A stretch of 64,000 nucleotides of DNA, taken from the NCBI GenBank assembly GCA_002497765.1, contig DAET01000046.1, positions 88,988 to 152,987 of the forward strand, read 5' to 3'. Source of the DNA: Euryarchaeota archaeon UBA486 (lineage in GTDB: Archaea; Thermoplasmatota; Poseidoniia; Poseidoniales; Poseidoniaceae). The notes under the pieces were generated by a model. The model did not search any database. It was not told the origin of the DNA and saw only the letters and a program-made list of their open reading frames with translations. The position numbers were made by a program, and so were the translations under genes. The stretch's first letter is position 1, and each line of letters starts with the position of its first letter. Positions 10,729-57,221 of this stretch are shown piece after piece.

Positions 10729-11619
10729 TCATCGGTGCTTCCAAACCGCTGTTTCACGGTTCATGAAGGCCTGGACACCGATTTCCTTGTCTTCACTGTC
10801 AAACAGACCGGCGAAGGCGATGGCTTCGATTTCCACACCGTCGGTGAGACCTTCGTCAAGGGCAGCGCGCACCGTGGCCTTGCCGACACGCAGAGCGAGC
10901 GAGGATTTGCTACCAATTCGACGGGCCATGGCCATGACGGTGGATTCCAATTCCTCCGGTGTGACCACGTGGTTGACCAGCCCGATGCGCTGCGCCTCAT
11001 CGGCTGGCACCATGTCGCCGGTCATGATCATCTCGTGGGCCTTGCCGTAACCGACCAAACGCTCCAACCGTTGAGTGGCGCCGTAGCCCGGAATGAGGCC
11101 GAGGTTAATTTCAGGCGTGCCAAAGGTGGAGCGGTCGCTGGCGATGCGAATGTCGCACGAACACGCCACCTCGCATCCACCGCCCAGAGCAAAACCGTCA
11201 ACCATGGCGATGGTGGGCTTGCTGAGGTTCCACAGCGCTTCAACGGCGTTGTTCTTGAATCGCTCTCGGATGACTTGGCTGCCCGCACCAGCAAACTCGG
11301 TGATGTCGGCGCCTGCGACGAAGGCATGCGGCTTGGCTCGCTTCCCTTCGGGAGGTGCGTTGGGCGACGCGCCGGTGACCACCAGGACGCGCACGTCATC
11401 GGTGGCCTCCATCCAATCGCAAACGGCCTTGAGGGAGGCCAAGACCTCGTCGTTGAGAGCGTTCAGTTTGTCCGGTCGGTCAATGGTCATGCAGGCGATG
11501 AAACCGAGGTTGTCTTCATCGCTGATGGCGTGCAGGTCAACCTTCATCACGTCGCTTTGTGGGGGGTTCATGGCGCCACTGAAGGCTCCCCTCTTCTTGA
11601 TGTCATCGCCATGCTTCAA
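10729..11619 (-). CDS. Enoyl-CoA hydratase/isomerase (crotonase) family
   Basis: …VVTGASPNAPPEGKRAKPHAFVAGADITEF…VDGFALGGGCEVACSCDIRIAS… crotonase fold. N-terminus probably shorter than the ORF (internal Met at MNPPQ or MKVDL). Confidence 0.75.
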   Translation of the reverse strand: MKHGDDIKKRGAFSGAMNPPQSDVMKVDLHAISDEDNLGFIACMTIDRPDKLNALNDEVLASLKAVCDWMEATDDVRVLVVTGASPNAPPEGKRAKPHAFVAGADITEFAGAGSQVIRERFKNNAVEALWNLSKPTIAMVDGFALGGGCEVACSCDIRIASDRSTFGTPEINLGLIPGYGATQRLERLVGYGKAHEMIMTGDMVPADEAQRIGLVNHVVTPEELESTVMAMARRIGSKSSLALRVGKATVRAALDEGLTDGVEIEAIAFAGLFDSEDKEIGVQAFMNRETAVWKHR

Positions 11620-11665
11620 TGAAGCACAACCAAGGTATGATAATTCAAAACGAAATCAACGGTCT

Positions 11666-12451
11666 ATGGCTGGGGACAAAGAACCGATGGTCAGCGCCGT
11701 GGATATGGCGAAGAAATACGGTGATTTCATCGCCCTTCATCCACTCAATGTGGAAGTTCATGCTGGTGAATTCTTTGGCGTGTTTGGACCCAACGGCGCC
11801 GGAAAATCCACTTTCATCAAGCTCTTGACCGGGCAACTCCGGCCGAGCAAAGGGCGCATTGAGGTGCTCGGCGTGGACGCCGTGAATGACCCTCAGAAAG
11901 TCAAGGCCAACATTGGCATCGTACCCGAGTCGGAATCACCACCCTCGTTCCTGACGCCGGCTGAATTCCTCGAGTTCGTGGCTCGTCTACGTGGCGTTGA
12001 GAACATGAAGGCCAAGGTTGAGCACTGGCTCGAATGGTTTGGCCTCCAAGACAAGCGAGACACCATGTGCAAGGACCTCTCCAAGGGTCAGCGCCAGAAG
12101 GTGATGCTCGCCAGCGCGTTCATCCACAAGCCGAAACTCTTGTTCCTCGACGAACCGTTCGCTAACCTTGACCCAATTTACCAGCGGAAATGCCGGGAGT
12201 GGCTGCTGGAGCATGTGGCTGATGGAGGCACGATTTTCCTCTGCTCGCACGTGCTTGAAATGGCTGAACGCATGTGCAACAGAATGGCGATCATCAACGA
12301 CGGAAAAGTCCTTGCAGCGGGGACGGTTAAAGGGCTCAAACAATCGGAAGAGGAGACCTTGGAAGACGTCTTCATTCGTTTGGTCGGTCGTTCCATCGAG
12401 GACGTTGAACGCCTCAGCGATGAAGGGGTCACGGACGATTCGGAGGAATGA
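11666..12451 (+). CDS. ABC transporter ATP-binding protein
   Basis: Walker A GPNGAGKST, signature LSKGQRQK, Walker B LLFLDEPFANLD. Start at ATG 11666 (MAGDKEPM); the long upstream extension of ORF 11093.. is antisense to the crotonase gene and discarded. Confidence 0.8.
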   Translation: MAGDKEPMVSAVDMAKKYGDFIALHPLNVEVHAGEFFGVFGPNGAGKSTFIKLLTGQLRPSKGRIEVLGVDAVNDPQKVKANIGIVPESESPPSFLTPAEFLEFVARLRGVENMKAKVEHWLEWFGLQDKRDTMCKDLSKGQRQKVMLASAFIHKPKLLFLDEPFANLDPIYQRKCREWLLEHVADGGTIFLCSHVLEMAERMCNRMAIINDGKVLAAGTVKGLKQSEEETLEDVFIRLVGRSIEDVERLSDEGVTDDSEE

Positions 12452-14145
12452 ACGTGGCCGGGACCTTCGTCGAATCGCGTCCGTGGACGGACGAAGATTT
12501 CAGCGAGCCGGGCCCGCTTGGGACGTCCTCTCACGGCGTCACGTTGAACGAACCGCTTCGAGGTTGGGCTTCGTTTTCCGCCACCTTTCGTGTGATGTTC
12601 ATTGAGGAAGGTCGCAAGAGCGTTGAATTCGCAAAAAAGCGCCAGATGGTGCTCTTTCCGCTGTTGCTGACGCTGGTCACCGCCATTTCGACCATTGGCC
12701 TACAGTTTTTGGTGGGCGATTCCACCGCACAAACCTCGGACATTGATGCCAAGACCTTCACCTGGCAGGAACTCCGCTTTGCTCTCCACCTGCCGATGTT
12801 CATGTTCTCCTTGGGCATGGGCACCTTTGCGTTCATGGGCCGTGATGCCATCGTTCGACGAACGGGTACCAAGAATTTCCTTCTGGCTGCACCTGCGCTT
12901 CAACCGCTCCCCAATTCCATGGCGCATTTCGCCTACTTCGTCAAGGACTTGCTGTTCTACGTGATGCTGATTCTCTCCCCCATCATCGCCGGTATGGCGC
13001 TGGGCATCCTCCTTGACGGGTTTGCTGGTATCCGAACACCGCTGTTGTGGAGTTCGCTCCCGTGGACATGGTTGGCCATGGCCACGACGCTGGGTCAAGG
13101 CCTGGCGCTCTCGTTCCTGGCTTCGTCGCTGTGGCTCCGTGGACGGCCGTTCACCGTGGTTGGGCCGTTGGCGATCGTGGCCGTTGGTATCGCTGTGGGC
13201 GTGGGTGTGTTGCCCGCCGATGTCCTGCTTTGGGGCCTGGCAGCTCAGTCAAGTCAGAGCGGCCTTGCGATTCTTCTGGGGTTGCTTCTTTCGCTGGGCA
13301 TCGGATTGATTGCTTCGCTGCTCATCCTCGACGACTTTGACGTGAGTGTGGTTGAGCGGGGTGATTTGCTGGCACCGACCTACGCCCGCCTCGGTTTCCT
13401 TGGCCGCGGTCACATCCGCCTCATCGTGGCGAAGGAATTTGTTGACCTGTTTCGGTCGGGAGCCATCAAGAAGATGACCGTGTCCTACGCCATTCCCCTC
13501 CTCGTGTTGTTGGGCATGGCGTGGCTGGTGGACTTTGCTGAGGCTCCCATTCCCATCAACCTGCTCTCCTACGCCCCGTTCCTCGGGTTCTTCGGGTTCA
13601 ATTTCTACTCGTGGTTGACCATCCTTGACTCCCCAGATTTCATGAACGGGTTGCCGCTGAAAGTTCCCGATTTGATTCGGGCGAAAGTGGTGGTGTATTT
13701 CCTCGCTACGTCTTGGATTTCGCTGATTTTCATCGTCTTGATGGCGTGGCGACTGGACGAATGGGCTTCGTTGCCCACCAGCATCATCGTGATGTTTGCC
13801 AACTCGGTCTACATCGTTGCGCTCACGGCCTTCTTGATGGGCTTGCGACCCAACAAAGCCATTTTCGACGCTTCGATCATGGTTTGGTTTTGGATCGGAA
13901 CCGTCCTGCCCCTGCTGGGCCTCTTCCTGCTCTCGTTCACGCAAGGCGATGTGAGCCTCTACGGTAACTGGTGGGAGCGAGCGAGTCAAGACGGGTTAGC
14001 GGCCACCGCTCAAATGTACGATGAAACCATGGTCCAACAGGGTTACATGGGCATGATCGCCATCTCCATCGGCCTCATCTTCGCTTCGGCCTTGCTTTGG
14101 AAATTGATGGACACCCGTTGGGGGCGTTCCGAGTTCTCAAATTGA
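12448..14145 (+). CDS. Polytopic membrane protein, probable permease partner of the upstream ABC ATPase (>=10 TM)
   Basis: ATGA start/stop overlap with the ABC ATPase gene; hydrophobic helices throughout the 565 aa. Confidence 0.55.
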   Translation: MNVAGTFVESRPWTDEDFSEPGPLGTSSHGVTLNEPLRGWASFSATFRVMFIEEGRKSVEFAKKRQMVLFPLLLTLVTAISTIGLQFLVGDSTAQTSDIDAKTFTWQELRFALHLPMFMFSLGMGTFAFMGRDAIVRRTGTKNFLLAAPALQPLPNSMAHFAYFVKDLLFYVMLILSPIIAGMALGILLDGFAGIRTPLLWSSLPWTWLAMATTLGQGLALSFLASSLWLRGRPFTVVGPLAIVAVGIAVGVGVLPADVLLWGLAAQSSQSGLAILLGLLLSLGIGLIASLLILDDFDVSVVERGDLLAPTYARLGFLGRGHIRLIVAKEFVDLFRSGAIKKMTVSYAIPLLVLLGMAWLVDFAEAPIPINLLSYAPFLGFFGFNFYSWLTILDSPDFMNGLPLKVPDLIRAKVVVYFLATSWISLIFIVLMAWRLDEWASLPTSIIVMFANSVYIVALTAFLMGLRPNKAIFDASIMVWFWIGTVLPLLGLFLLSFTQGDVSLYGNWWERASQDGLAATAQMYDETMVQQGYMGMIAISIGLIFASALLWKLMDTRWGRSEFSN

Positions 14146-14201
14146 GCCTCAACGCTGTCTCGGGAGGTAGGTTCTTGAGCGGTAGGCGACGGCCGTGAAC
14201 C

Positions 14202-14756
14202 ATGGGTCAAGTCGTGGCGGTGTGCGGCATGCCTGGCTCAGGCAAAGGTGAATTCGCTGCCGTTCTCGCTGAAGCCGGCGTGCCGGTTGTTTCCATGGGC
14301 GACATGATTCGAGCCGAGGTGCGCCGCCTCGGGCTTGATGAAGCCCCGCACGTGTTTGGTGAGGTGGCGGCCTCGCTGCGAGCCGCTCACGGCGAGGACG
14401 TGTTGGCGGTGCGCCTGTGCGACCGGGTGGACGAACTGCTCGTCGACCATCCGTTGGTGCTCATCGAAGGTCTGCGAGGAACGGCGGAAGACACCGTGTT
14501 CGCCGCCAGGTGGGGCGCCATCTACCGGACGGTGGCCATCATCGCTGATGCCGAATTGCGCTTCCAGCGAACCCTCAAACGCGGCCGGTCCGAAGACGGT
14601 GACCGAGCGGCCTTCGAAGCCCGAAATCAACGCGAACAGGGGTGGGGTCTTGATGCCCTCATCGAGGTGGCCGCTGATAAAATCCACAACGATGTTGACC
14701 TCCCTGAATTTCAGGGCCGCTGTGAAGCGTGGATGGCCGCGATTCTGAACGCCTAA
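14202..14756 (+). CDS. P-loop nucleotide/dephospho-CoA-kinase-like protein (archaeal UPF0200-like family)
   Basis: VCGMPGSGKGEF Walker A at the N-terminus; adenylate-kinase-like size (184 aa). Confidence 0.55.
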   Translation: MGQVVAVCGMPGSGKGEFAAVLAEAGVPVVSMGDMIRAEVRRLGLDEAPHVFGEVAASLRAAHGEDVLAVRLCDRVDELLVDHPLVLIEGLRGTAEDTVFAARWGAIYRTVAIIADAELRFQRTLKRGRSEDGDRAAFEARNQREQGWGLDALIEVAADKIHNDVDLPEFQGRCEAWMAAILNA

Positions 14757-14866
14757 ACCCGTGTGCCTCGACGGTAGGAAACGCGCCACAGCAGGGCGGT
14801 TTACGACCGATTTTCACCCAAGTGTTATAGTCGGGGAGATGTTGTAGCAAACTGCAATCGCGGGGG

Positions 14867-16399
14867 TTGGTGACCATGGCAAGAAAAAAAGGCGGTGGCG
14901 GTGGACGACAGCGAGCCCGACAACGAGCGCAATACGATGAGTTGGACAAGTACCCCGTGATGCCTCCTCACGCCTTTGCGCGTATCGTTCGCGACAAGCA
15001 AACGCTCAACATCATCTACCAGATCATCGAACCTCCGCTCACCAAGAAGGAACAAGAGCAACGAGACGAAATCATGGACATTTTCATTCGCTCCCTAACG
15101 GCAAACATTGAGGAGATCGACTCCAATCCCGAAGCCTACGTGCGGACGGCCATGGATAAGGTCATCAAATCCTACAGCATGAAAATCAACAAGAAATCCA
15201 AGTCGAAGCTGTTCTACTACCTCCGCCGCGACCTCATCGGCTACGGGAAAATGGACGTGCTGATGAACGACGTCAACGTTGAGGACATCTCCCTTGATGG
15301 CACCAACGTGCCTATTTTCGCTTACCATCGAAAATTCGAATCGGTGGAGACCACCTGTGTGTGGGAAACCGACGAAGAACTGGAATCCTACGTCATCAAA
15401 CTCGCTCAACGCTGTGGAAAGCACATTTCCGTCGCAGAACCCTTGCTTGACGCTACGCTGATGGACGGTTCCCGTATCGTCATGAAACTCGGGCACGAGA
15501 TCTCAACCCGTGGTTCGGCGTTCTGTATTCGACGGTTCAAGGACGACCCGTTCTCCCCCGCCGACATCGTCGCCTTCCGAACCATGTCGTCGTTGATGGT
15601 GGCCTACCTGTGGATCGCCTTCCAGAACGAAGTCCCGATGCTGTTCGTCGGTGGTACGGCGTCCGGAAAAACGACCACCCTCAACGCCATGTGCATTTTC
15701 ATCCCCTGGCAAATGAAAATCGTCTCCATTGAATCCACCCGTGAAGTCAACATTCCGCAACCCAACTGGGTTCCGGGCCTGACCCGACAAGGGTTTGGTG
15801 GTGAGAGCGACGACGGTGTGATCGGTGAGTTCGAGTTGCTCAAGGCAGCCTTACGTGAACGGCCGGAATACATCATCGTGGGTGAAATCCGTGGTGCTGA
15901 AGCCTATGTTCTGTTCCAAGCCATGGCCACCGGCCACTGCGCATATTCCACGGTTCACGCCGACTCCGTACCCTCCCTCGTTCACCGTTTGGAGAACAAA
16001 CCGATCGACATCCCTCGTGTGCTCTTGCCGGCGCTGGAAGCCTGTTCGATTCAGATTCAGACCCGTATCAACGGACGCCGTGTGCGTCGCACCAAGCAAG
16101 TGGTGGAAATCGTCGGCATCGACCCCAACTCGATGGAAGTCATCACCAACGAAGTGTTCCGCTGGGACGTGACCAACGATGATTTCATCTTCAGCGGCAA
16201 GTCCTACGTGCTGGAGAAAATCATGGTCAAGATCAACTACAGTCAGGAAGAGATGCGTCGTGAATTGCGAACCCGCAAGCGCATCTTGGAATGGATGGTG
16301 CTCAACGACATTCGCAAGGCTGACCAGGTTTCGCAAATCGTCACGGAATACTACGTCCGACCCAATGAAATTCTCGCCCGTGTGGACGGGTTGAAGTGA
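14867..16399 (+). CDS. Type IV pilus/archaellum assembly ATPase (FlaI/ArlI - TadA/CpaF family secretion ATPase)
   Basis: Walker A VGGTASGKTT, Asp box, Walker B …EYIIVGEIRGAEA…, His box …ATGHCAYSTVHAD…; N-terminal domain as in FlaI. Confidence 0.85.
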   Translation: MVTMARKKGGGGGRQRARQRAQYDELDKYPVMPPHAFARIVRDKQTLNIIYQIIEPPLTKKEQEQRDEIMDIFIRSLTANIEEIDSNPEAYVRTAMDKVIKSYSMKINKKSKSKLFYYLRRDLIGYGKMDVLMNDVNVEDISLDGTNVPIFAYHRKFESVETTCVWETDEELESYVIKLAQRCGKHISVAEPLLDATLMDGSRIVMKLGHEISTRGSAFCIRRFKDDPFSPADIVAFRTMSSLMVAYLWIAFQNEVPMLFVGGTASGKTTTLNAMCIFIPWQMKIVSIESTREVNIPQPNWVPGLTRQGFGGESDDGVIGEFELLKAALRERPEYIIVGEIRGAEAYVLFQAMATGHCAYSTVHADSVPSLVHRLENKPIDIPRVLLPALEACSIQIQTRINGRRVRRTKQVVEIVGIDPNSMEVITNEVFRWDVTNDDFIFSGKSYVLEKIMVKINYSQEEMRRELRTRKRILEWMVLNDIRKADQVSQIVTEYYVRPNEILARVDGLK

Positions 16400-16423
16400 G
16401 GCGGCCAAACAGGAGTCGATAGC

Positions 16424-17443
16424 ATGGACCTGACGGCATGGCAACGCATCTGCAATCGGCTGCTCGGGCCGTTTGTCAAAAAGCGCGCCCGCAACGACAA
16501 GGAATTGTCGGCCAACCTCGTCAAAGGGTCGATGGGCATGATGCCCGAAGTGTACCTCTCCACCGTGATCGTCACCTCGATTGCCATTGCGCTGATGTCG
16601 TGGGCCTTTGTGGCCATTTTCTTCATTCCCGACATCGGCGTCATCGCCTTTTACGAGAGCATTCAAGACGCCGCTACCAAGGACCCGTGCTTCGAATGGG
16701 AGTATTGGAACCCCGACCTTGTCGACCCTTCGCAGCCCGGCAACGGTTGTCCTGAATACGCCCTCCAGGTGTTCCCACCGGCGCTGAAGGTCATCATCGT
16801 CGCTCTCGGCGGATTGATCATCCCGTACGCCGCTTACGTCTACAACAAAGGCGGCGCTGCTCGAGAAGCAACCCGCCGTGCTGACATGATTGAGAAGTAC
16901 CTGCCCTACGCTGCCTCCTACACGGCGGCGATGTCGGCGGCCAACGCCACCCCGGCCAAGATTTTCAGGTCCCTTGCCATGAACAAGGACATCTACGGTG
17001 ACGTGGCTGACGACGCTGCGATGATCTATCGCGACATCACCCTTCTCGGCTACGACCTCATCACTGCGATGAAAATGAGTGTCGACCGGGCCGCTTCGGT
17101 GTGGTTGACAGAATTTTTCCAGGGCATGGTCGGCACCCTCACGGCCGGTGGCCAGCTCAAGCTGTTTTTCCTGAACCGCGCAGAGCACTACATGCGTGAA
17201 AACCGCACCCGTCTCGGGCAATTCCTCGAGTCGATTGCCCTGCTGGCCGAGTCCTACATTGTGGTCGCCGTCGCTATGCCGCTTTTCCTGATCGTCATGC
17301 TCGTCATCATGTTCTGGGTGTCGGGTTCAGGCGCGCAGATGAGCGAAGGCATGCTGTACGGCATCGTGTTGGGTTTCATCCCAATGATTCACATCGCCTA
17401 CGCCATTCTCGTGTGGACCAGCAGCAAGGAGCAAGAAATGTGA
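16424..17443 (+). CDS. Pilus platform membrane protein, TadB/FlaJ-like (single T2SS-F domain)
   Basis: …AMIYRDITLLGYDLITAMKMSVDRAA… T2SS-F-like cytoplasmic domain flanked by TM helices. Immediately downstream of the ATPase. Confidence 0.7.
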   Translation: MDLTAWQRICNRLLGPFVKKRARNDKELSANLVKGSMGMMPEVYLSTVIVTSIAIALMSWAFVAIFFIPDIGVIAFYESIQDAATKDPCFEWEYWNPDLVDPSQPGNGCPEYALQVFPPALKVIIVALGGLIIPYAAYVYNKGGAAREATRRADMIEKYLPYAASYTAAMSAANATPAKIFRSLAMNKDIYGDVADDAAMIYRDITLLGYDLITAMKMSVDRAASVWLTEFFQGMVGTLTAGGQLKLFFLNRAEHYMRENRTRLGQFLESIALLAESYIVVAVAMPLFLIVMLVIMFWVSGSGAQMSEGMLYGIVLGFIPMIHIAYAILVWTSSKEQEM

Positions 17444-17457
17444 GGGGGTGAGGGACA

Positions 17458-19032
17458 ATGGCGCGCAAGAAGGACAAGATTGTGGTCAACCTCGACCTCC
17501 CCAAGGACGATACGACGCTAACCAAGCTCTACGTCATCTTGTTCTTCTCCATCATCCTCGGCTTGGGCAGCGGTCTGTTTTGGATCACCAACTCCGGGTT
17601 CGTCCCCACGGCCAACGGTGAACCGATGTTCACCAACCTCTACTGCGGTGCCACGGCTCAAGATGAACTTGGCAATCCAACGGGCGAATTTTTCCAAACC
17701 AACCAGAAGCCAACCTACACGGCGAACCAAACCTGTTCCATCCTCCAGGACAGCCCCGACCGCATCACGTGGGAAGATGAGGAATGGACCATGGTTACCA
17801 AGCGAGGCAAAAATTTCGACGTCCCCGGAGTTCCTGATTCCGCCACAGGCGGGACTGCCGTGCTCCAGCCGCTCTGGCTGAACTACACGGTTGAAGCCTC
17901 GGGGTCGTACGACTACACCGTCGCCATCCGGACGTCCTCCGGTGATATTCTCGAGTTCGAGAACGAAACGGCGAACTCCGGTGCACAGCAGCTCTACATG
18001 GTTACGATTCCACCGGACACGCGCTACGAACTCATCTTCATGTCCTCGCAGGAAGGCCAGTTCCTGCAAACCATCACCTTCGACATGACCGTTCACTATC
18101 AGGACGGTATCCCCACGAACATGAACAACAAATCGTTGTGGTTGGGACCTGCCTTGGAAGCAGGACCGTTGAAGGTTCACCCGACCATTTTCCTCAACTT
18201 CTTCGGTCTGACGTTCTTCTTCTTCATCTTCCCAGCCTCGTACTACTGGGAGCGCGTTGAGAACGAGAAGAACGAGGTGGAAGAGAAGTTCCCAGATTTC
18301 CTTCGAGACCTGGCTGAATACTGGAAAGGTGGTCTCTCCATGACCGTCGCCGTCCAAACCCTGGCGACATCGGAATACGGTGCTCTCAACGACGAAGTCA
18401 AGAAAATGTCCGACCAGTTGAGTTGGGGTGTCAAGTTCTCTGATGTGATTGGCCAGTTCGCTGAACGGGTCGGCACCCCGCTCGTCCGGCGTGCCATCAC
18501 GCTCATCGCCGAAGCCGACCGTGCGGGTGGGAAAATTTCGGACATTCTCGTCACGGCTGCCAACGACTCCCGTGAATTGAAGTTCCTCGAGGGTGAACGC
18601 AAACGAGCCATCGGTTCGTACATTGCGGTCATTTGGACGTCGTACTTCGTTTTCCTCGGCGTGATCGTCGTTCTGGCCAAGGTGTTTATTCCCGCTATTG
18701 CAGGTTCGAACTCCGGCGGTGAAGACGGCGGCGACAGCGGCGGTCAAACCATCGGGAACATGACCATTCGAAACATCGACCCGCTGTTCTTCCTGACGAT
18801 TTTCTACTACGGCGTGACCATGCAAGCGCTCGGTAACGGTTCCATGGCCGGCTTGATGGCCACCGGTCGTTTCTCGACCGGATTCAAGCACTCGGGAATG
18901 ATGATCGTCGTCGCCCTCGTCATCTTCAACCTCGTCGCCTTTTCGCCCGACCTCATCGGCATCACGGAAGTTCCCGGGCTGAACCCCTCCTCGGGAACCT
19001 TCGTTCCTTCCCCGCTCTACTTCGGAGGCTGA
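17458..19032 (+). CDS. Pilus platform membrane protein, TadC/FlaJ-like, with a ~200-aa extracytoplasmic insertion after TM1
   Basis: T2SS-F domain …FAERVGTPLVRRAITLIAEADRAGGKISDILVTAAND…. N-terminal TM then a Thr/Asn-rich exposed domain (NYTVEASGSYDYTV…). Confidence 0.7.
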   Translation: MARKKDKIVVNLDLPKDDTTLTKLYVILFFSIILGLGSGLFWITNSGFVPTANGEPMFTNLYCGATAQDELGNPTGEFFQTNQKPTYTANQTCSILQDSPDRITWEDEEWTMVTKRGKNFDVPGVPDSATGGTAVLQPLWLNYTVEASGSYDYTVAIRTSSGDILEFENETANSGAQQLYMVTIPPDTRYELIFMSSQEGQFLQTITFDMTVHYQDGIPTNMNNKSLWLGPALEAGPLKVHPTIFLNFFGLTFFFFIFPASYYWERVENEKNEVEEKFPDFLRDLAEYWKGGLSMTVAVQTLATSEYGALNDEVKKMSDQLSWGVKFSDVIGQFAERVGTPLVRRAITLIAEADRAGGKISDILVTAANDSRELKFLEGERKRAIGSYIAVIWTSYFVFLGVIVVLAKVFIPAIAGSNSGGEDGGDSGGQTIGNMTIRNIDPLFFLTIFYYGVTMQALGNGSMAGLMATGRFSTGFKHSGMMIVVALVIFNLVAFSPDLIGITEVPGLNPSSGTFVPSPLYFGG

Positions 19033-19036
19033 CGGC

Positions 19037-19477
19037 GTGCGTCACGACGAAGAAGCCCAGATTCACATTCTGGAAATGTTGACGCTGTTTTGGCTGTTCT
19101 TCATGTCGGCCACCTTCTTGATTCGCGTTCACGTTCCCGATTCTGCCTCTGTCGCCCTTGACTCATCCTTGGAGATGGCGGCCGACGATGCCATCCGCTA
19201 CGGTCTTGGCCTCGAGGCGGAGATTGAAGGCGACAGTCGTTTGGAGGAGTTGCTGGCCGATGATGCTCGGGAAGAGGCCTGCGAGTTGCTTCAGTCTGCC
19301 GTGGCGCCCGGAAAGGAGGCGAATTGTTGGCTGGCGAAGGACAGTTCAGTGGCCACACCGCACGGAACGGTTGGAACGCCGGCCGGTGGCACGGTGGCGG
19401 TTCACCATCTCGTGGTCATCGGCCCGTACGTTTGGACGGTCACGCTGGATGTTTGGGCCCGTGGAGGTGGTGCTTGA
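19037..19477 (+). CDS. Pilin-like / pseudopilin-like small protein (hypothetical). N-terminal hydrophobic helix with Glu at +5 of a possible class III cleavage site
   Basis: …EEAQ|IHILEMLTLFWLFFMSATFLI…; 4 bp after the platform gene; stop overlaps the next start (TGATG). Confidence 0.35.
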   Translation: MRHDEEAQIHILEMLTLFWLFFMSATFLIRVHVPDSASVALDSSLEMAADDAIRYGLGLEAEIEGDSRLEELLADDAREEACELLQSAVAPGKEANCWLAKDSSVATPHGTVGTPAGGTVAVHHLVVIGPYVWTVTLDVWARGGGA

Positions 19478-19923
19478 TGCGCGCCAGCCAACTGAAGGAC
19501 GCCAACGCTGGACAGATGCTGCTCGCCACCGGTGTCGTGCTCCTCATGTCCTTGCTTTCCATGGCCATCTTCGGCGTGAAAGTGGCGGGTCTGACCTTGC
19601 CCCACGAGGCAGCATCGGACGACGTCATTGACACGACCGATCAGGTGCTCGAGACGATACAGCCCCTGACACAGGCACGGATGGAACTCTGGATGGACGG
19701 CGGCCTTGAACCGCTTGAAGCAGCCGAACTTGGGTTCGAAACCGTACACGACGACCTGCTTCACCACGGCGAATTGCGAGGCGTTGAAATCAAACTCACC
19801 AACATGGCTGTTTCGGAACTTGACAGCAACACGCTTCAGGTCAGCGCAGAACTGGGTGTCTCCGACGGCGAGGCCATGCTGAATTACGAGGTGGCGTTCA
19901 CGCTCACCGTTCAAGCCTCGTGA
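19477..19923 (+). CDS. Pilin-like small protein (putative class III signal peptide …NAGQ|MLLATGVVLLMSLL…)
   Basis: Start ATG 19477 overlaps the upstream stop (TGATG). Charged N-terminus, then an (A/G)Q motif and a 20-aa hydrophobic segment. Confidence 0.4.
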   Translation: MRASQLKDANAGQMLLATGVVLLMSLLSMAIFGVKVAGLTLPHEAASDDVIDTTDQVLETIQPLTQARMELWMDGGLEPLEAAELGFETVHDDLLHHGELRGVEIKLTNMAVSELDSNTLQVSAELGVSDGEAMLNYEVAFTLTVQAS

Positions 19924-20657
19924 TGAGCATCAACGGCTCGGTTCAGCAACGTGAAGATACGCTCAACATCGCTGTCAACACGGGTGGGGTCAACCACCGG
20001 CCAGTTCGCAATTTTCGCACGCTCGATGAGCCCTTCTTGAATGGCACGAATGCGGGCGAAGCTGGCAAGATAGCGGTCGGACCGACGGTAGGAATGAGCG
20101 TCTCTCGACTTCAGCATGTCTTGGTGAGCCCGCTCCTCATCCACCACCATCACCACGCCCAAGGCCACACCCCCGGCGTCTTCCCACGCCTTGAGCAGGC
20201 GTGCGCTCGGAACGATGTGAACGCCTTCGAGCAGGAGGTCGATGCCTTCCCTTCGAGCCCGTTCAACGGTGGCCGTGATGCCCGCTTCAACGGCCAGGCA
20301 GGTTTCGTTCCAATCCAGCACGGGCTCGCCGCTGCTTCCTCTCGAAAAGGACGAGCGGTGGAGCGCTTCTCGTTGCTGCCCCTCATCTGCCGCCCGCATG
20401 ATTTCGCGAATGGCGTCGGTCGACATGACCCGGGTGAACCCGGCTCGGTTGGCGACGCCGACGGCTGCCGTTGATTTTCCAACCCCGGTGGCACCGGCGA
20501 TGATGAGCAACCTCGGCGGTCGCGATGAGAGGGTTTGCGCTGTTTGTTGCGCCATCCCTACCCGCTGGGCCATGCGGTTGAGGTGAAGGGGCGAGCACAT
20601 GAGGGTTCTGCCCAAGGATGCGTTCCCTTCCTTCATTTGGTGCCCGAGAAAACCCAC
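19911..20657 (-). CDS. 2-phosphoglycerate kinase-like P-loop protein
   Basis: …LLIIAGATGVGKSTAAVGVANRAGFTRVMSTDAIREIMR… (P-loop plus the STDxIRE motif of the 2PGK family). The true start is probably an internal Met (~20573/20555). Confidence 0.55.
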   Translation of the reverse strand: MGFLGHQMKEGNASLGRTLMCSPLHLNRMAQRVGMAQQTAQTLSSRPPRLLIIAGATGVGKSTAAVGVANRAGFTRVMSTDAIREIMRAADEGQQREALHRSSFSRGSSGEPVLDWNETCLAVEAGITATVERARREGIDLLLEGVHIVPSARLLKAWEDAGGVALGVVMVVDEERAHQDMLKSRDAHSYRRSDRYLASFARIRAIQEGLIERAKIANWPVVDPTRVDSDVERIFTLLNRAVDAHHEA

Positions 20658-22921: not shown

Positions 22922-23845
22922 TCACTGGATTTGGAACTGGTACTGCGTGGCGGGTTTCTTTCCGCCCAGGCGAGTCAGCCCGATGATGAGTGCGATGAGG
23001 CCACCGCATGCAGAGCAGCAACCCGCACCAATCGATGCGACCGAAATGCCCGACTTCGTGAGCAACTCCTCAACGAATCCAGATTCGATGTACATGGCGT
23101 CAAGGTCAACCACGGACATGTTGATGCCAGCATCGTTGGACACCGTCAGGATTTCTCCCTCTACGCAATCGTGTTCTGCCTCCCCGACATCGTCTTGCAT
23201 GGTGTAGCAAATTCGGGCGACAATGATGTGGTCTTCAATGTCAAAGTACGGCTCGTAGGCTTTGTTGTCGTCGCCTCGACCCATTGAGCAAGAAATTCTC
23301 GCTGTGCGATCGCTGACATCGTTGCCGTCTTCGTCGAGAACGGAGAAACTCACATTCTCGCAGGCATCCACGATGTTGTTGTCGTTCTCATCGGCCTTGG
23401 GGTCGCCGGGAATCAGGAGGTACCAACCCTCCTCACCCATGCCATCTTCGTCGTCGTGGGTGAGTTCACCGCTGTCCCCGATTGAAGTGGTGTAGTCAAC
23501 GGTGGAGAGTTTGTTGAAGGTGTCTTCAATCGAAGCGCCCACGACTGCCCCGATGCCAAACCCAATGAGGCCGATGACCACCAAAACGGCGGCGATGATC
23601 ATGGGGACTTTGGGCCCCTTTCCTTCATCCCCGATGGTGATGTTCTGTGTCGCCATGCCTGGCTGATAGCCAGCAGCGACCATGTCCGGTGTGATTTGTT
23701 GTTGGAGAACGGGGCTTGGCCCTTCGATGTCCGCTGGAGTGGCGCCATCCGAAGGTTCGCCTGGCTCGCAATCCGGTTCATTTCCACCAGCATCCTTGGT
23801 GGCGCCCATGATGGCACCCCAAGGGGTAGGGTTGGTTTCGTCCAT
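22922..23845 (-). CDS. Cys-rich acidic membrane protein (hypothetical). N-terminal TM, exported acidic domain, C-terminal GAGCCSACGG-TM-basic tail
   Basis: TM helices MIIAAVLVVIGLIGFGIGAVVG and GLIALIIGL followed by TRLGGKK; acidic domain with about 8 Cys. Confidence 0.45.
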   Translation of the reverse strand: MDETNPTPWGAIMGATKDAGGNEPDCEPGEPSDGATPADIEGPSPVLQQQITPDMVAAGYQPGMATQNITIGDEGKGPKVPMIIAAVLVVIGLIGFGIGAVVGASIEDTFNKLSTVDYTTSIGDSGELTHDDEDGMGEEGWYLLIPGDPKADENDNNIVDACENVSFSVLDEDGNDVSDRTARISCSMGRGDDNKAYEPYFDIEDHIIVARICYTMQDDVGEAEHDCVEGEILTVSNDAGINMSVVDLDAMYIESGFVEELLTKSGISVASIGAGCCSACGGLIALIIGLTRLGGKKPATQYQFQIQ

Positions 23846-39607: not shown

Positions 39608-40228
39608 TCAATCGATGTTCTCGTCGCCAGGTGGGGCACGGCTGGCGTGGTTCAAGGCCACACCTGCCGCCATGAGGGCGATGGTGACCGAATACACGCC
39701 AACATCAATCCAACCCTTGTGGGCGATTCCGAAGTAAAGGTAGAACGCAAGACCGAGCAGGAGGCACCATGCAGCCATGGTTCGCTGGCCGCCGGCCACC
39801 GAGGTGTCGTTGAGGGCCGTCCAGGTATCGTTGATAACGAGGCCGCGGAACCAGTCTGCAACGGGTTGTTGCTGGTTGATGGTCTTGGAACCGAAGGCGA
39901 TGAGCGCTGCGCATCCGGCCATGAAGATGGTGTCACCAAGGACTTCGAAATGGAAGCCATCTTTTGCTTCGCCAAAGGCTGCGTTGGTGGCTTCAAAGGT
40001 GAGCAGGCCACCCCAGGAGACGTGGTAGGTCGGGTGAATCATGCCGAACATGTTCAGAGCGGCCAGGACCAATCCCCATAGGCCGACGCAGACCATGACG
40101 GACGCATAAACGGGCACCTTTCCGCTGGTGGATTGGGCGGTTGCATCGTCGCTCATGGGCCCTGCGACTTGCGAACTGCATTTAAGCACACCGAAACGGG
40201 TGAACTCCGAACGAAACCACGTCCTCAC
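39608..40228 (-). CDS. Hypothetical integral membrane protein (5-6 TM)
   Basis: Hydrophobic helices throughout; likely start at internal MSDDATAQ; 4-bp overlap with orc1/cdc6. Confidence 0.4.
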   Translation of the reverse strand: MRTWFRSEFTRFGVLKCSSQVAGPMSDDATAQSTSGKVPVYASVMVCVGLWGLVLAALNMFGMIHPTYHVSWGGLLTFEATNAAFGEAKDGFHFEVLGDTIFMAGCAALIAFGSKTINQQQPVADWFRGLVINDTWTALNDTSVAGGQRTMAAWCLLLGLAFYLYFGIAHKGWIDVGVYSVTIALMAAGVALNHASRAPPGDENID

Positions 40229-41466
40229 AACGAGGTTTGGTGGTGGTAGTTGGAATTGAACACCGTGCGCATCTCTTCTTCGGCGGTGCCCATGATTTCA
40301 CGAACGTCCACGTTGGCGGGGATGCAGGAATTGATTTCCTTGGACCGGCCATAACGGCCCTTGCTCACGGTGCGCGCCGTGACCAAACCCAGCATGTCAA
40401 GGTTGGAAATCAATCCGGAAATTCGGCGTTGAGTGAGTGGGTTTTGCCTGATGTGCTTGCAGGCTTGGCGGTAGATGTCGTACACTTGGCCGGTTTGGAC
40501 GTTGCGCAATCCGTTCTGTTCGTTGAGGAGAATGGCGGCAAGAACCAGTTTTTGTTGGCTGGGGAGGGTGGCGATCACGGGCGTCATTTGGTCGGATTCA
40601 ATCTGACTCTGGGCAATGCGAACGTGGTTTTGGTTCACGATGGATTCGCCAGACTGTTCGGCCTTTTCAGCTGAAATCCTGAGTAAATCCAATGCGCACC
40701 GTGCGTCCCCATGTTCTTGCGCAGCCAGTGCCGCACACAACTCGATGACGCCGGGCCCAATGGCTTCGGCGTCCAACCCTTCTTGAGCGCGTTGGCGGAG
40801 AATGTCCTGGAGCTGTTCGGCGTCGTAGGGTCGGAACAGCACGTCCAACTGCCCGAGTCGAGATCGGACACGAGGGTCAAGGAAATCGGTGAATTTGAGG
40901 TCGTTGGAAATGCCAATGACGCACGAACGGGCGTGCTTGAGCGAGGCGTTCATGCTGGTCAGGTTGTACAGGAGGTCATCGCCGGCCTTGCGAACAAGGT
41001 GGTCAATTTCGTCGAGAACGATCACAAACACACCGCCACGTCGGTCCATTCTTCGCACAAGTTCGTTGAAGACACGGTCGGTGGGCCAACCTGTGAAAGG
41101 AATCTCATCTTGTTCAAAATCCTCAAGCAGTGAATTTCCGATGTGGCTGAGCACCCGGTATTGCGTGTCAATTTGCCGACAATTGACCATGATGGACTCC
41201 ACCTGGCGACCCATGGTCTGGCCTTTGGCTCGAAGGTGATGACAGACGTAATCCGTGACGGCCGTTTTCCCGGCTCCCGTCACCCCGTAGAGGGTCATGT
41301 TACTGGGGATGTGGCCCTTCAGGGCTTCCCACAGGTTGTAGGAAATTTTCTCAATCTCTTCCTGTCGATGAGGAAGTTGAGAGGGGCGGTAATTGTGGCG
41401 AAGATGTTCCTTGTTTTTGAAGAGGGTTTTCTGGGAAACAAACTTGTCAAAGATGTTGGTTTCCAT
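40225..41466 (-). CDS. cdc6: Orc1/Cdc6 replication initiator (AAA+ with C-terminal winged helix)
   Basis: …PSNMTLYGVTGAGKTAV… Walker A, …VFVIVLDEIDHL… Walker B, sensor …ISNDLKF…, C-terminal wH …RISGLISNLDMLGLVTAR…. Confidence 0.9.
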   Translation of the reverse strand: METNIFDKFVSQKTLFKNKEHLRHNYRPSQLPHRQEEIEKISYNLWEALKGHIPSNMTLYGVTGAGKTAVTDYVCHHLRAKGQTMGRQVESIMVNCRQIDTQYRVLSHIGNSLLEDFEQDEIPFTGWPTDRVFNELVRRMDRRGGVFVIVLDEIDHLVRKAGDDLLYNLTSMNASLKHARSCVIGISNDLKFTDFLDPRVRSRLGQLDVLFRPYDAEQLQDILRQRAQEGLDAEAIGPGVIELCAALAAQEHGDARCALDLLRISAEKAEQSGESIVNQNHVRIAQSQIESDQMTPVIATLPSQQKLVLAAILLNEQNGLRNVQTGQVYDIYRQACKHIRQNPLTQRRISGLISNLDMLGLVTARTVSKGRYGRSKEINSCIPANVDVREIMGTAEEEMRTVFNSNYHHQTSL

Positions 41467-50540: not shown

Positions 50541-53500
50541 ATGTCAAATCAAACGCACCCGAAAACAAAGCCAATTTTCCTGATGTTGTTGATGCTTCTC
50601 GCTCCGTTTGCCTCCGCCAACGTTACCACGTTCGCTGACGGCAGTTCGGAGGTTGACATCGAAATCCGAGACGGGAACGATCTCGAAAATCTCGTGGATG
50701 GAGCGATTAACCTTCCCGACGGTGAAACGGTCACCGGGGCTTCGATGATCATCCACACCAAGATGGTTGAGCACGGTGCTCACTCCCGCATTGACCTCGA
50801 AACCACCCAGCGCGTCTGGAACCCCCAATACAACAACCAGCTCACGGAATTTTCCGACGAGTCCCTCTTCCAATACGAGGACGGCACCCAAGCCACACCT
50901 GTATCCCTCGTTTCCGAAGGCTTCCTGACCGACTTTGAGGGCACCAATGGTGGCTTTACCGATTCAACCAATCCTTCCTCCATGCCGTCCAGCGGCATCG
51001 GTTGGGAGCACGGGTCGCTCTCTGCGACCGACATTCCCGGCGGCTGCGCTTCGGGCCAGGAGTGTTGGGGGACCAACCTCGCCGACACCAATTACACCGA
51101 TGACAACGACGACGGCAACACGCCGCCTTCGTACCTCCCCTTCGTCGTCGCCATGACCAGCACCGACCTGTTCGTTGATCCGCTCCTCAAGAGCAAAACA
51201 GCCTTCTTTGATTCATGGTGGAACCTGGAAACTTCCACCGGCTCCCAACCGAACAGCAAACGTTTCTCTGATTGCGGCTACCTTCAGATTCGTTCCTCGC
51301 CCAACCCCGGCTTCCCTCCCGACGACAGCGGTTTTCAGGTCATCGCATTCGACCAGCAAGCCAGCACCGGTTTGGTGTACGGCACCAACTACGCTCAAGG
51401 CGGCGGCTCTGGAAACAACTGGGACGGCAAGATCACCAGCAACTGTGGCGGCCTGCAAAACGGTAGCCAGTGGGAGTGGGGTCTTGCCGGTTCCTCCACC
51501 ACGGCCCAAAACCCCACGGGCTGGAACAATCTCGCCGTCGATTTGACGGATTACATCGACGAGTACGTTCAACTTCGCTTCGTGCTTCACCACACCGGTC
51601 GTTCCGCCATGAACATCGACGACAACATGTCGGGCTGGTACGTCGACAACTTCCGATTGGGCGACCTCTTGCCTCAGAGCGCCAGCATGACCGTTCGTGG
51701 CATGACGCCGTCAACTTTGGGCGGCGAAAACCATCCCAACGGCTACGGCATTCTCACCGTCGAAGCCGAGACCTCCCTTTCGGCTACGCTGACCGTCGAC
51801 GTCCTCGACACCAACAACAACCCTGTCACGGGCAAGGACGGCTCCATGATGACCGGTCTTTCCGGCGACATCATCGAGTTGTGGAACATCGATTCGGCTG
51901 ATTACCGTGCTGTCAATCTAAAGTTCAACTTCGATTCGGGTCCCGACCGACTCTCAACGCCGATTCTCCACGGTTTCAGCATCGGTTCTCGCGTCGGAAC
52001 TGGATTCAACTTCTCGGCGATCGGACCGGTTCAAATCGATGGCGGCATTTGGCAAACGATGGGCGGTGGAGAGCCGATGATCTACGTTCCGAACCTGAAA
52101 CGAGACGCCTACACACCAGCGCTCGAGCGCAGCAAATTCAGCTACCCCATCACGGCCATGACGCCAGTCATCCAAGACGACTGCAGCGAATCGCCGTCCA
52201 TTGAGATCACGCCCACCGGTCAAACCACCAGTATCAGTGTCGAAAACGGCGTCAGGTCCACGTTCGATGATCCGCTGTTTGGCTTCAACGCCGTGACCTC
52301 GTATCTTGGGCCGTGCGACGTTGGTGGCATTTGGTTCGACTTGGAATTCGGACATCACGCCAAGAACGTTGAAATCGACGTGGCCAACGATGGCGATGTC
52401 GACTACGGCTTCACCGAGCCAGCGTTTGACATGTTTGGACGCCAAACCAAGTTCGTCTCGGGTACCGTTGACGGCGTCAACTACGCCGCCGATGACGCCA
52501 CCCTCACCCTTGGCGTGAACGGTCAAGCGACCGGGGGCTTCTTCCTCCTGCCCGAAGGGGCTGACATTACGGCCGCCGATTTCGGTATGGACCAAATTTC
52601 CATTCGCTCGAACAGTGACCCGACCGAAGGCTTCGAACTCACACTCATGGCAGGTTCCCAATCCGTTGTGCTTGGCGACATGCCCAACAGCACCACGCTG
52701 GTTCAAGAGATGCTCAACCAGCCGATGGACTTCGTCGGCGCTCTGCAGAGCCTGATGACCAACCCCTCCGTTGCAGGGACGCATCAGGACGAATTCGGCC
52801 GCTACTGGGTCATGCTCCGCTTCATGGTTGACTCGCCAAACGCCTCCTCGGGAACTTCGTTGGACATCGTCGACCTTGACATCGTCTACGATTACGGTAC
52901 CACCCTTGACGAGACCGACGGCTTTGACCTCGAACTCAATCAGGGCGTTGCCTTGTGGACCGGTGGCGCAACCGCAACGGTCCCCGTCGCAGTGTCCAGT
53001 TCCACCGGTGGCGGTGTGATGTTGAGCGACCTGAGCGTCTCCTCCAGCACCGGCTACAGCAACACGCTGACCCTCACCGACAACCCGGTGGGCTTGTACC
53101 CCAACGGCGACATCTATGAGGTGGTCACCACACACGCTGTCGACCCGTTGACCGGCACTTCGCTGGCTGAGGCATGGCTGACCTTTGAGTCCGAATCTGG
53201 CTACATCAAGCTCTCGTGGAGCGATTTCATGTCCTTCGCTGAAGCCAGCGACGAACACGACCACATCCAACTCGAATCCACGTCCTCGGTGGCGGACATC
53301 ACCAACGGCAAGGAGATCACCTGGCACTTCCGTGTCAACCCGACCTGGGACGACACGCCGGCCGTTCGCATGTATGCTGGTCTCACGGCCACCAACGGCG
53401 TCAACGGACTCCCCGACGCTGTGCTGCTTGAACCATCGGTTGGCAACGCCGTGGAAAACGATGCAGGTATCACCTCCTTTGAGTTGCAAAACAGCATCGG

Positions 53501-56420: not shown

Positions 56421-57221
56421 ATGTCCTCGTTGTGGACCGATACGGTCTGGGAGGACCCTGACGGTGGACGGGTCATCGTTCACGGGACGATGCCAACGGT
56501 GGTGTACCCCAACGCCATGCGACCACGGGCGACCTGGCACGGTTTGGCGCTGCTTGAATCGCCCGATGTCGTTGATCTGTGGATTCAGGAAGAAGCCGAT
56601 GAAGCGGAATCGCAAGGCATCAACCTCACGCACGCGCTGCTCTCCGGCGGGGCCTTCGGCAAATACATCGAAGGCATTGAGACGCTTGAGGCCCTTCAGG
56701 GCGGTCGTTTCCCCGACCCGGAACCCCGCCGGCTTCAACGAAACGCCGACCGGCACGGCCGGGCGGTCTTCTTCATCGAACCCTTGGCCGATGATGAGGA
56801 CTGGGGCGATTACTTGACGCAGGAAGCAAGAGCCGTCTCACACTGGCGAAAATTACTGGGCATGGTACGCGTGGGGAAGCGATGGAAAAAGAGCGTCAAG
56901 CAACATCTGTTCAACGCTCAACCCCCGCCCAAGGGCCAATCCGTGGACTATTCGACAGCGAGCGTGTTGGCCGCTGCTTGGTGGGAGCTTTCTGAGTGGT
57001 TGAGCACGCCCGCTCTCGCCAACCGACGCAACGAGCGCTACGCTGCGCGTGTACGCGGCGCCCTCGCCTCGCTTCGTTCCGACCTTGGCGATGACGCCAC
57101 CCTGCTGCTCGTGGTTCACCAGCCTCATGCAGCGGCCATGGTGAAGGCGCTGGATGCAAACAGGACGGTGGAGGAGATTTCATCAACAGCCACCACCTCC
57201 ACCCACACGGAGGAAGAGTGA
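56421..57221 (+). CDS. Hypothetical protein (266 aa), first of four co-directional genes following the giant surface-protein gene
   Basis: 10 bp after the giant gene stop; no family recognised. Confidence 0.45.
   Translation: MSSLWTDTVWEDPDGGRVIVHGTMPTVVYPNAMRPRATWHGLALLESPDVVDLWIQEEADEAESQGINLTHALLSGGAFGKYIEGIETLEALQGGRFPDPEPRRLQRNADRHGRAVFFIEPLADDEDWGDYLTQEARAVSHWRKLLGMVRVGKRWKKSVKQHLFNAQPPPKGQSVDYSTASVLAAAWWELSEWLSTPALANRRNERYAARVRGALASLRSDLGDDATLLLVVHQPHAAAMVKALDANRTVEEISSTATTSTHTEEE

Follow-up and report, generated by a model that had tools for sequence, protein, structure and literature searches.

The 64,000-nucleotide (nt) stretch of Euryarchaeota archaeon UBA486 analyzed here (contig DAET01000046.1, positions 88,988 to 152,987 of the forward strand; referred to as the window, with window coordinates counted from its first nucleotide) contains a cluster of five genes that probably forms an operon for assembling a type IV pilus-like structure (type IV filament, TFF), of the euryarchaeal "clade 2 / system 2" kind and with a platform that is naturally encoded by two genes. 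The five genes are co-directional on the + strand and tightly spaced (14876–19923). The first gene (14876..16399) encodes a PilB/FlaI-family (VirB11-type) secretion ATPase of 507 amino acids (aa), the motor of the machine, and it is followed by the N-terminal platform half pN (PilC-N / TadC-family, 16424..17443, 339 aa) and the C-terminal platform half pC (PilC-C, 17458..19032, 524 aa), which carry one T2SSF domain each. The last two genes encode the prepilin-like proteins s4 (19037..19477, 146 aa) and s5 (19477..19923, 148 aa). The genes are separated by intergenic gaps of 24, 14, and 4 nt and a final 1-nt overlap between the s4 stop and the s5 start (TGATG), and each of the five is preceded by a Shine–Dalgarno (SD)-like motif. 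The start of the ATPase gene was placed at the ATG at 14876, as called in independent assemblies; the TTG at 14867 that was given in the first-pass annotation of the window lies three codons upstream. A 199-aa open reading frame (ORF) from 19324 is an over-extension of s5.

The description of the locus in the first-pass annotation as a five-gene, co-directional type IV filament module that is not an archaellum holds. All five genes are present, and no FlaB, FlaF, FlaG, or FlaH, no FlaCDE, and no paralogue of the ATPase or the platform were found in the 64-kb window. The archaeal context was also recognized correctly, as the homologues are named Ca. Poseidonia or Poseidoniaceae, which identifies the host as a Poseidoniales (Marine Group II) archaeon.

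Reality and Conservation of the Split Platform

Two adjacent platform genes that lie 14 nt apart and are collinear with a fused PilC could represent a single FlaJ/PilC gene that a frameshift, a nonsense mutation, or an assembly error has interrupted, and hence a pseudogene or an artefact; broken calls in this region do occur in one long-read contig. This explanation is nevertheless left with almost no probability. The pN protein is matched by >100 clusters of exactly 339 aa at 67–99% identity, independent assemblies call the same pair of 339 + 524 aa, and products of 339 aa and ~520 aa recur in hundreds of independent assemblies and protein clusters. The two platform genes are separate in at least 70 species genomes of Marine Group II (MGII; MGIIa and MGIIb) and in seven genomes of Marine Group III (MGIII). 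Furthermore, pC has its own SD-like site (GGGGGTGAGGG ahead of the pC ATG), its own N-terminal cytoplasmic tail, and its own transmembrane (TM) segment. Given the conservation across species and the separate SD-like sites, a frameshift or sequencing error, which the first-pass annotation had named as one way to refute its proposal, does not explain the split.

The long-read contig (L004, arlington_4__contig_4462_pilon, 1.59 Mb) is a near-complete MGII chromosome in which pC is called as two products of 140 + 390 aa (11035–12608). The break lies inside pC and not at the junction of the two platform genes, and neighboring genes are likewise broken or fused, with a split Ham1p and an Aldedh call of 735 aa. 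Because the neighboring genes are broken too, the pC break was read as the result of indel errors in that assembly.

The five-gene synteny is kept in the species genomes of Poseidoniaceae and Thalassarchaeaceae (77 fetched) wherever a contig covers the operon. Identity across the MGII species genomes is 83–100% for the ATPase, 54–99% for pN, 50–99% for pC, 41–99% for s4, and 33–99% for s5. In the seven MGIII genomes, too, a pair of distinct platform genes comes after the ATPase gene, and the two overlap by 1 nt. The operon is chromosomal and vertically inherited within the class Poseidoniia. Horizontal acquisition was considered and rejected, as the base composition of the locus is the same as that of its flanks and synteny is kept throughout the class. 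A contig titled "Verrucomicrobiales bacterium isolate ARS100" (L014, NZEQ01000077.1) carries the whole operon and its flanks at 99% identity; this is almost certainly an archaeal contig that was mis-binned into a bacterial metagenome-assembled genome.

An exhaustive search with pN against 1.8 billion representatives (E ≤ 1e-10) returned 872 proteins, and the best 150 of these (50%-identity representatives) were classified. Among these 150, 102 are single-domain proteins of 200–400 aa, 32 are fragments, seven are fused N- and C-halves, and eight are single-domain proteins of the N-half type with an N-terminal extension. The extension of the last group (e.g., P0220, P0230, P0261) is 260–450 aa long, and in a crude neighbour-joining tree of the N-half domain seven of the eight representatives fall into one tight clade. 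This tree, which carries no support values, groups the window protein with the other MGII proteins and then with MGIII, inside a clade that consists of split proteins only. The fused forms appear at no fewer than four separate places in the tree and are interleaved among split relatives, a pattern that suggests repeated fission or fusion and would make the split a weak phylogenetic character. The gene order itself extends beyond the Poseidoniia: two metagenomic contigs from outside the class (L088 and L090) encode a PilB3-like ATPase, pN, and pC followed by an s4 homologue. In L090 an s5 homologue comes fifth, whereas the corresponding position in L088 is taken by an unrelated gene of 505 aa.

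Affinities of the ATPase and the Platform

The ATPase contains a Pfam T2SSE domain (E = 1.4e-25) and its catalytic motifs are intact (Walker A GTASGKTT, Walker B IIVGEIR, and the His box). The match to PilB3_C is weak in the window protein (22.2 bits vs. a cut-off of 27), the MGIII orthologue exceeds this threshold with 38.8 bits, and PilB3_N/C are recorded for the same ATPase in other assemblies and in relatives. The best match in the PDB is GspE2 of Archaeoglobus fulgidus (2OAP, 402 bits), followed by FlaI of Sulfolobus (271 bits) and CpaF (128 bits). A comparison with plasmid records gave haloarchaeal PilB at 42% identity (354–370 bits) and CpaF at ~31% (145–179 bits). Judged by these matches, the ATPase is of the archaeal type and not of the TadA/CpaF type. 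The MGIII protein is 57% identical to its MGII counterpart and carries a Lys/Glu-rich C-terminal extension of ~190 aa that is absent in MGII.

The same comparisons bear on the idea that the locus is a degenerate or accessory archaellum module built around FlaI and FlaJ. The ATPase matches the NCBIfam FlaI model best (398 bits), both platform halves score highest with ArlJ models, some homologues are named FlaJ by the Joint Genome Institute (JGI), and Poseidoniaceae are reported to carry archaellum operons (PMC6461757). However, all of these model scores fall below the curated cut-offs (550 bits for FlaI; ≤53 bits for the halves vs. 400–570 for ArlJ) and the ATPase is nearer to the non-archaellar GspE2 than to FlaI. 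Neither the locus nor the window contains any of the archaellum genes listed above, the partner proteins resemble the DUF proteins of haloarchaeal pilus loci and not archaellins, and Thalassarchaeaceae and MGIII carry the locus as well. An archaellum module is thus extremely unlikely.

The pN protein has a cytoplasmic T2SSF domain (aa 166–292, E = 3.4e-11), four predicted TM segments, and an enlarged outer loop of 49 aa with two Cys. The T2SSF domain of pC (aa 281–406, E = 4e-13) is flanked by an N-terminal TM segment and C-terminal TM segments. TM prediction returned the same unit in each half, a TM hairpin followed by the cytoplasmic T2SSF domain and a second TM hairpin. A direct comparison of the pN and pC families with hhalign showed nothing significant (probability 0.5%), and a sequence search of both halves against PDB chains gave no meaningful match.

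The two halves are collinear with a fused platform protein. In the ArlJ models, pN aligns to positions 43–223 of 555 and pC to positions 224–453 of 465. Family profiles built from the Poseidoniia match the fused haloarchaeal PilC proteins (679 and 701 aa) with 70–99 bits, pN at residues 125–325 and 160–344 and pC at residues 434–678 and 445–694, and match Vibrio TadB/TadC with ≤16 bits. The claim of a split TadB/TadC-type platform in the first-pass annotation is therefore only partly sustained: two genuine single-T2SSF genes are present, but the description of the halves as "TadB/TadC-like rather than FlaJ" is not supported. A previous study equates TadC with the N-terminal and TadB with the C-terminal half (Denise 2019, PMC6668835), which the present hhalign comparison neither confirms nor contradicts. 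Both families gave similar weak values against Vibrio TadB and Vibrio TadC, so that neither half can be assigned to TadB or TadC and no orthology can be called.

A Tad-like module that is unusual for Archaea, either as a close archaeal cousin of Tad or as a back-transfer from Bacteria, would account for two single-T2SSF platform genes adjoining the ATPase gene, as in Tad, and the TadA-family model TIGR03819 does match the ATPase (131.7 bits). That score is far under its cut-off of 373, and the ATPase and platform comparisons favor GspE2, haloarchaeal PilB, and fused PilC over CpaF and TadB/TadC, with hhalign non-discriminating for the platform. The locus encodes neither TadZ nor an RcpA secretin, an Flp pilin, or TadV, its composition equals that of the flanks, and vertical conservation of the operon extends over both MGII and MGIII. 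Split platforms are, moreover, known in Archaea: two tadC-like genes are described in clade 1, in many euryarchaeal loci of clade 2, and in clade 4B (Makarova 2016, PMC4858521), and platform fission is considered to be ancient and to have occurred in an archaeal ancestor (Denise 2019, PMC6668835). A Tad-like module is very unlikely on this evidence.

A region of pC that is mostly missing from its relatives is a predicted extracytoplasmic loop of ~195 aa (aa ~45–239, 17590..18174) between the first two TM segments. The length of pC decreases from 524 aa in the window to 427 aa in MGIII, 377 aa in L088, and 274 aa in L090, and the loop is largest in MGII. Within the loop, residues ~100–215 of pC (nt 17755–18102) are predicted to form a β-sandwich. 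In the AlphaFold2 (AF2) model, block means of the predicted local distance difference test (pLDDT) across aa ~100–210 are 66–89 (mostly 79–89), and the mean of the whole model is only 54.6. A Foldseek search of the pC model against the PDB returned only generic jelly-roll, GOLD, and CBM-type matches (E ~1e-4).

Prepilin-Like Features of s4 and s5

Both small proteins begin with a variable charged leader of 6–22 residues that terminates in an invariant small residue, and then have Gln and ~20 hydrophobic residues, which bears out their earlier description as two small, N-terminally hydrophobic, pilin-like proteins. The s4 motif is [A/G]-Q-x-H-x-x-E, in which Q8 and E13 are invariant and H10 nearly so across MGII, MGIII, and two other lineages. 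The alignment of s5 gave the motif [A/G]-Q-[M/L]-L-L-x-x-G, with Q13 and L15 invariant and L16 and G19 nearly so. Read from these alignments, the N-termini are built like class III (prepilin) signal peptides, with a putative cleavage site at [A/G]|Q. The globular parts of the two proteins comprise ~100 aa, and that of s4 is an α/β part with two conserved Cys that follows the helix. The AF2 model of s4 (pLDDT 76) consists of a long N-terminal helix, further helices, and a 4-stranded sheet, and is compatible with a pilin.

The relatives of s4 and s5 are found in haloarchaeal pilus loci. Weak Pfam matches link s4 to DUF7262 and DUF7288, and hhalign of the s4 family against the DUF7288 protein of Halobaculum gave a probability of 75% (E = 2.6e-5) with RAQAHTLE aligned to EAQIHILE. 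DUF7261 is weakly matched by seven of the 16 members of the s5 family, the window s5 itself weakly matches Pilin_N, and hhalign of the s5 family against the Halobaculum DUF7261 protein gave a probability of 52% (E = 1.4e-4). Every component of the operon thus has an archaeal affinity, and from similarity scores and locus content all components are judged to lie inside an ordinary archaeal clade, an outcome that the first-pass annotation had listed as speaking against its own proposal.

Several observations weigh against the assignment of the locus to a clade 2 pilus system. Neither the Pfam nor the hhalign matches that connect s4 and s5 with the haloarchaeal families reach the curated thresholds, and Foldseek of the s4 model returned no pilin match (best E = 0.02). 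A strict FlaFind-like pattern fails on both proteins, as MGII has an acidic or neutral residue at position −2 and s4 has His at position +3. A canonical FlaFind-type class III pilin was not found in the window with a FlaFind-like regular expression applied to six frames; its two matches are both ordinary membrane proteins. An A24 prepilin peptidase was not found in the 64-kb window by a motif scan and by Pfam on a subset of the ORFs. The designation "clade 2" itself is drawn from similarity scores, Pfam PilB3 domains, and locus content, which suggest it. Finally, in the scheme of a 2026 preprint the platform is encoded by two genes in system 1 and in subsystem 4A and by a single gene in system 2, which conflicts with Makarova 2016 and would make the locus a split variant. 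Two of these points have a parallel in known clade 2 genomes, in which the pilins of euryarchaeal loci are often encoded in trans and the peptidase is commonly located elsewhere in the genome, as in Aciduliprofundum (Makarova 2016, PMC4858521).

If the locus is a pilus-like system of this kind, a hexameric PilB-type ATPase would dock on a platform of two separately translated polypeptides (a PilC-N/PilC-C heterodimer), and the machine, driven by ATP hydrolysis, would pull class III signal-peptide proteins out of the membrane and polymerize them into a surface filament. The substrates would include at least s4 and s5, cleaved at [A/G]|Q by a prepilin peptidase whose gene would lie outside the locus, and further pilins are probably encoded elsewhere in the genome as well. 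The filament would most likely be an adhesive pilus or a short pseudopilus.

Gene Content in MGII and MGIII

The MGIII locus (L079, 6310–7816 and 9471–10049) contains two additional pilin-like genes upstream of the ATPase gene. The first, located directly upstream of the ATPase gene, encodes a 350-aa Pilin_N/DUF7289-like protein with the canonical N-terminus "AVSPVIG", and the second encodes a 158-aa DUF7266-like protein. Neither the Pilin_N/DUF7289-like (arCOG02911) gene nor the DUF7266-like gene was found by tblastn in the window or in any of the MGII loci fetched.

The loss of two genes that MGIII has kept, with two small pilin-like genes remaining, suggests another explanation for the MGII locus, namely that the machine was remodelled or reduced to a pseudopilus-type or envelope-associated device that uses only s4 and s5 and has a role other than adhesion. 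By analogy with the logic of the pseudopili of the type II secretion system (T2SS) or of the Sulfolobus bindosome assembly system, the predicted β-sandwich of pC might be the part that faces the cell envelope, and in these archaea, the most abundant of the surface ocean, the device could serve, for example, in secretion or in the assembly of surface proteins. Such a device would fit the ~195-aa ectodomain of pC that is largest in MGII, the conservation of the ATPase above that of its neighbors (83–100% identity), and the presence of the operon in every fetched MGII genome that covers the region. An ABC ATPase and a large membrane protein also lie upstream in conserved MGII synteny, and in Haloferax volcanii only pilBC3 of the five pil clusters forms visible pili according to the 2026 preprint. 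On the other side, the absence of pilins from the locus proves little, since clade 2 pilins are often encoded in trans; the ABC genes are unlinked in MGIII; and the β-sandwich has no specific fold match. The scores against the bindosome models are low (196 bits vs. a cut-off of 1000 for BasE and 21–27 vs. 1300 for BasF), far from what the bindosome assembly system requires. A remodelled device is unlikely, and a pilus-like operon of the clade 2 kind, presumably with additional pilins in trans, is preferred.

MGII and MGIII are uncultured and very abundant planktonic archaea, and a conserved pilus-like operon that is not an archaellum is present in both MGII families and in MGIII. The MGII studies considered here (PMC6461757, PMC8821943) discuss only an "archaeal flagella operon", and the pilus-like locus is not described in them. 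Homologues of the platform genes are annotated in public records as "flagellar protein FlaJ" or "pilus assembly protein TadC" (P0050, P0332, P0372, P0395), and surveys of archaella or attachment that use flaI/flaJ as markers, such as a size-fraction analysis (PMC6461757), could pick up this locus too. If the machine was in fact remodelled for another role, it would have been overlooked or confused with the archaellum through automatic FlaI/FlaJ annotation.

Promoter Region and Neighboring Genes

A TATA-like box (TTATAG, 14825..14830, + strand), recognized in the sequence itself ~45 nt ahead of the ATPase start codon, is a possible promoter of the operon. A scan for sigma-70 promoters and terminators was also run, but the consensus is not applicable to an archaeon and the result is uninformative.

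The region upstream of the operon (11093–14756) encodes an ABC-type ATPase, a 565-aa polytopic membrane protein without a Pfam match, and an AAA_17/18 kinase-like protein, and a convergent AAA_33 kinase-like gene is located downstream (19911–20657, − strand). All of these flanking genes are in fixed synteny with the operon throughout MGII and are unlinked in MGIII. The upstream ABC transporter and kinase genes were considered as possible parts of the system and were ruled out, as they are unlinked in MGIII and in other relatives.

A 307-aa acidic, Cys-rich protein with one central TM segment and no Pfam match is encoded at 22922–23845 (− strand), and its gene adjoins the locus in related contigs. 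Further away, a Cdc6/Orc1 replication initiator with Cdc6_C and Cdc6_lid domains is encoded at 40225–41466 (− strand), and a chromosomal replication origin may be located near this gene. A 1956-aa ORF (50541–56411, + strand) has a signal-peptide-like N-terminus and no Pfam match at E ≤ 1e-5; its sequence suggests that the product may be a large secreted or surface protein. Several ORFs close to it, among them those at 56421–57221 and 58726–59817, likewise have no family match.

Comparison with Known Systems

The first-pass annotation started from the view that archaeal Epd, Aap, and Ups pili normally use a single fused platform protein. This is contradicted by the two-gene platforms of Epd-like (clade 1) systems, of many euryarchaeal loci of clade 2, and of clades 4A and 4B, and the locus can be compared with four systems that share parts of its organization.

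The resemblance to the Tad / Flp pilus (type IVc) lies in the gene order, as an ATPase gene followed by two one-T2SSF platform genes of ~300 aa is also found in the Vibrio tad locus. This order is not diagnostic. Unlike Tad, the locus contains no TadZ, RcpA/B/C, TadD, TadE/F, Flp pilin (G|XXXXEY), or TadV, and unlike Flp, s4 has its conserved Glu at +6 from the putative [A/G]|Q site and lacks the Tyr, whereas the Flp Glu is at +5. Tad is thought to descend from a split-platform archaeal system (Denise 2019, PMC6668835), and the locus had been proposed to inform the transfer of Tad between Archaea and Bacteria. It adds nothing special in this respect, because split platforms are known in Archaea and the locus has no special affinity to Tad, being no closer to it than other archaeal systems are.

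The Epd pilus of Methanococcus maripaludis (clade/system 1) is likewise archaeal and distinct from the archaellum, and its platform, too, is encoded by two genes. These lie ahead of the ATPase gene, unlike the order of ATPase, N-half, and C-half found here, and the dedicated EppA-type peptidase of Epd and its FlaH-like ATPase, and very short major pilin without a globular domain were not seen in the locus. The Epd prepilins, which are the EppA substrates, presumably carry Q at +1.

Haloarchaeal PilB/PilC loci, which Makarova 2016 lists for Haloferax volcanii as the "PilB4-type" system and which are represented here by a plasmid of Halobaculum halophilum, share more features with the locus. Haloarchaeal PilB is the closest match to the ATPase that was found in a cultured organism (42% identity, with a PilB3_C domain), and the halves of PilC are collinear with pN and pC. 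The order of s4 (DUF7288-like) and s5 (DUF7261-like) downstream of the platform follows the Halobaculum order PilC-DUF7287-DUF7288-DUF7261-DUF7266-DUF7289, and MGIII encodes DUF7289- and DUF7266-like proteins in addition. The haloarchaeal loci differ in the fused platform of 679–701 aa and in an ATPase of 833–989 aa with long N- and C-terminal extensions (vs. 507 aa here), and MGII keeps only two of the five pilin-like genes.

The clade 2 locus of Aciduliprofundum boonei has the gene order arCOG02911 pilin - arCOG01817 ATPase - arCOG01808 TadC - arCOG01808 TadC (Makarova 2016, Table S4, PMC4858521), and the lengths of its two TadC proteins, computed from the tabulated coordinates, are ~332 and ~290 aa. 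Based on the tabulated gene content, MGII differs from A. boonei in the absence of the upstream pilin, the two small pilin-like genes downstream, the large loop of pC, and the absence of a second ATPase gene after the platform. The two loci agree in an ATPase gene followed by two separate TadC-family genes of ~300 aa in a euryarchaeal host, and the orthologous MGIII locus also shares the arCOG02911-type pilin directly upstream of the ATPase. What the Poseidoniia add to these known systems is mildly new: the lineage in which the locus occurs, a locus that in MGII has lost the canonical pilin genes, and a pC protein whose extracellular loop is enlarged.

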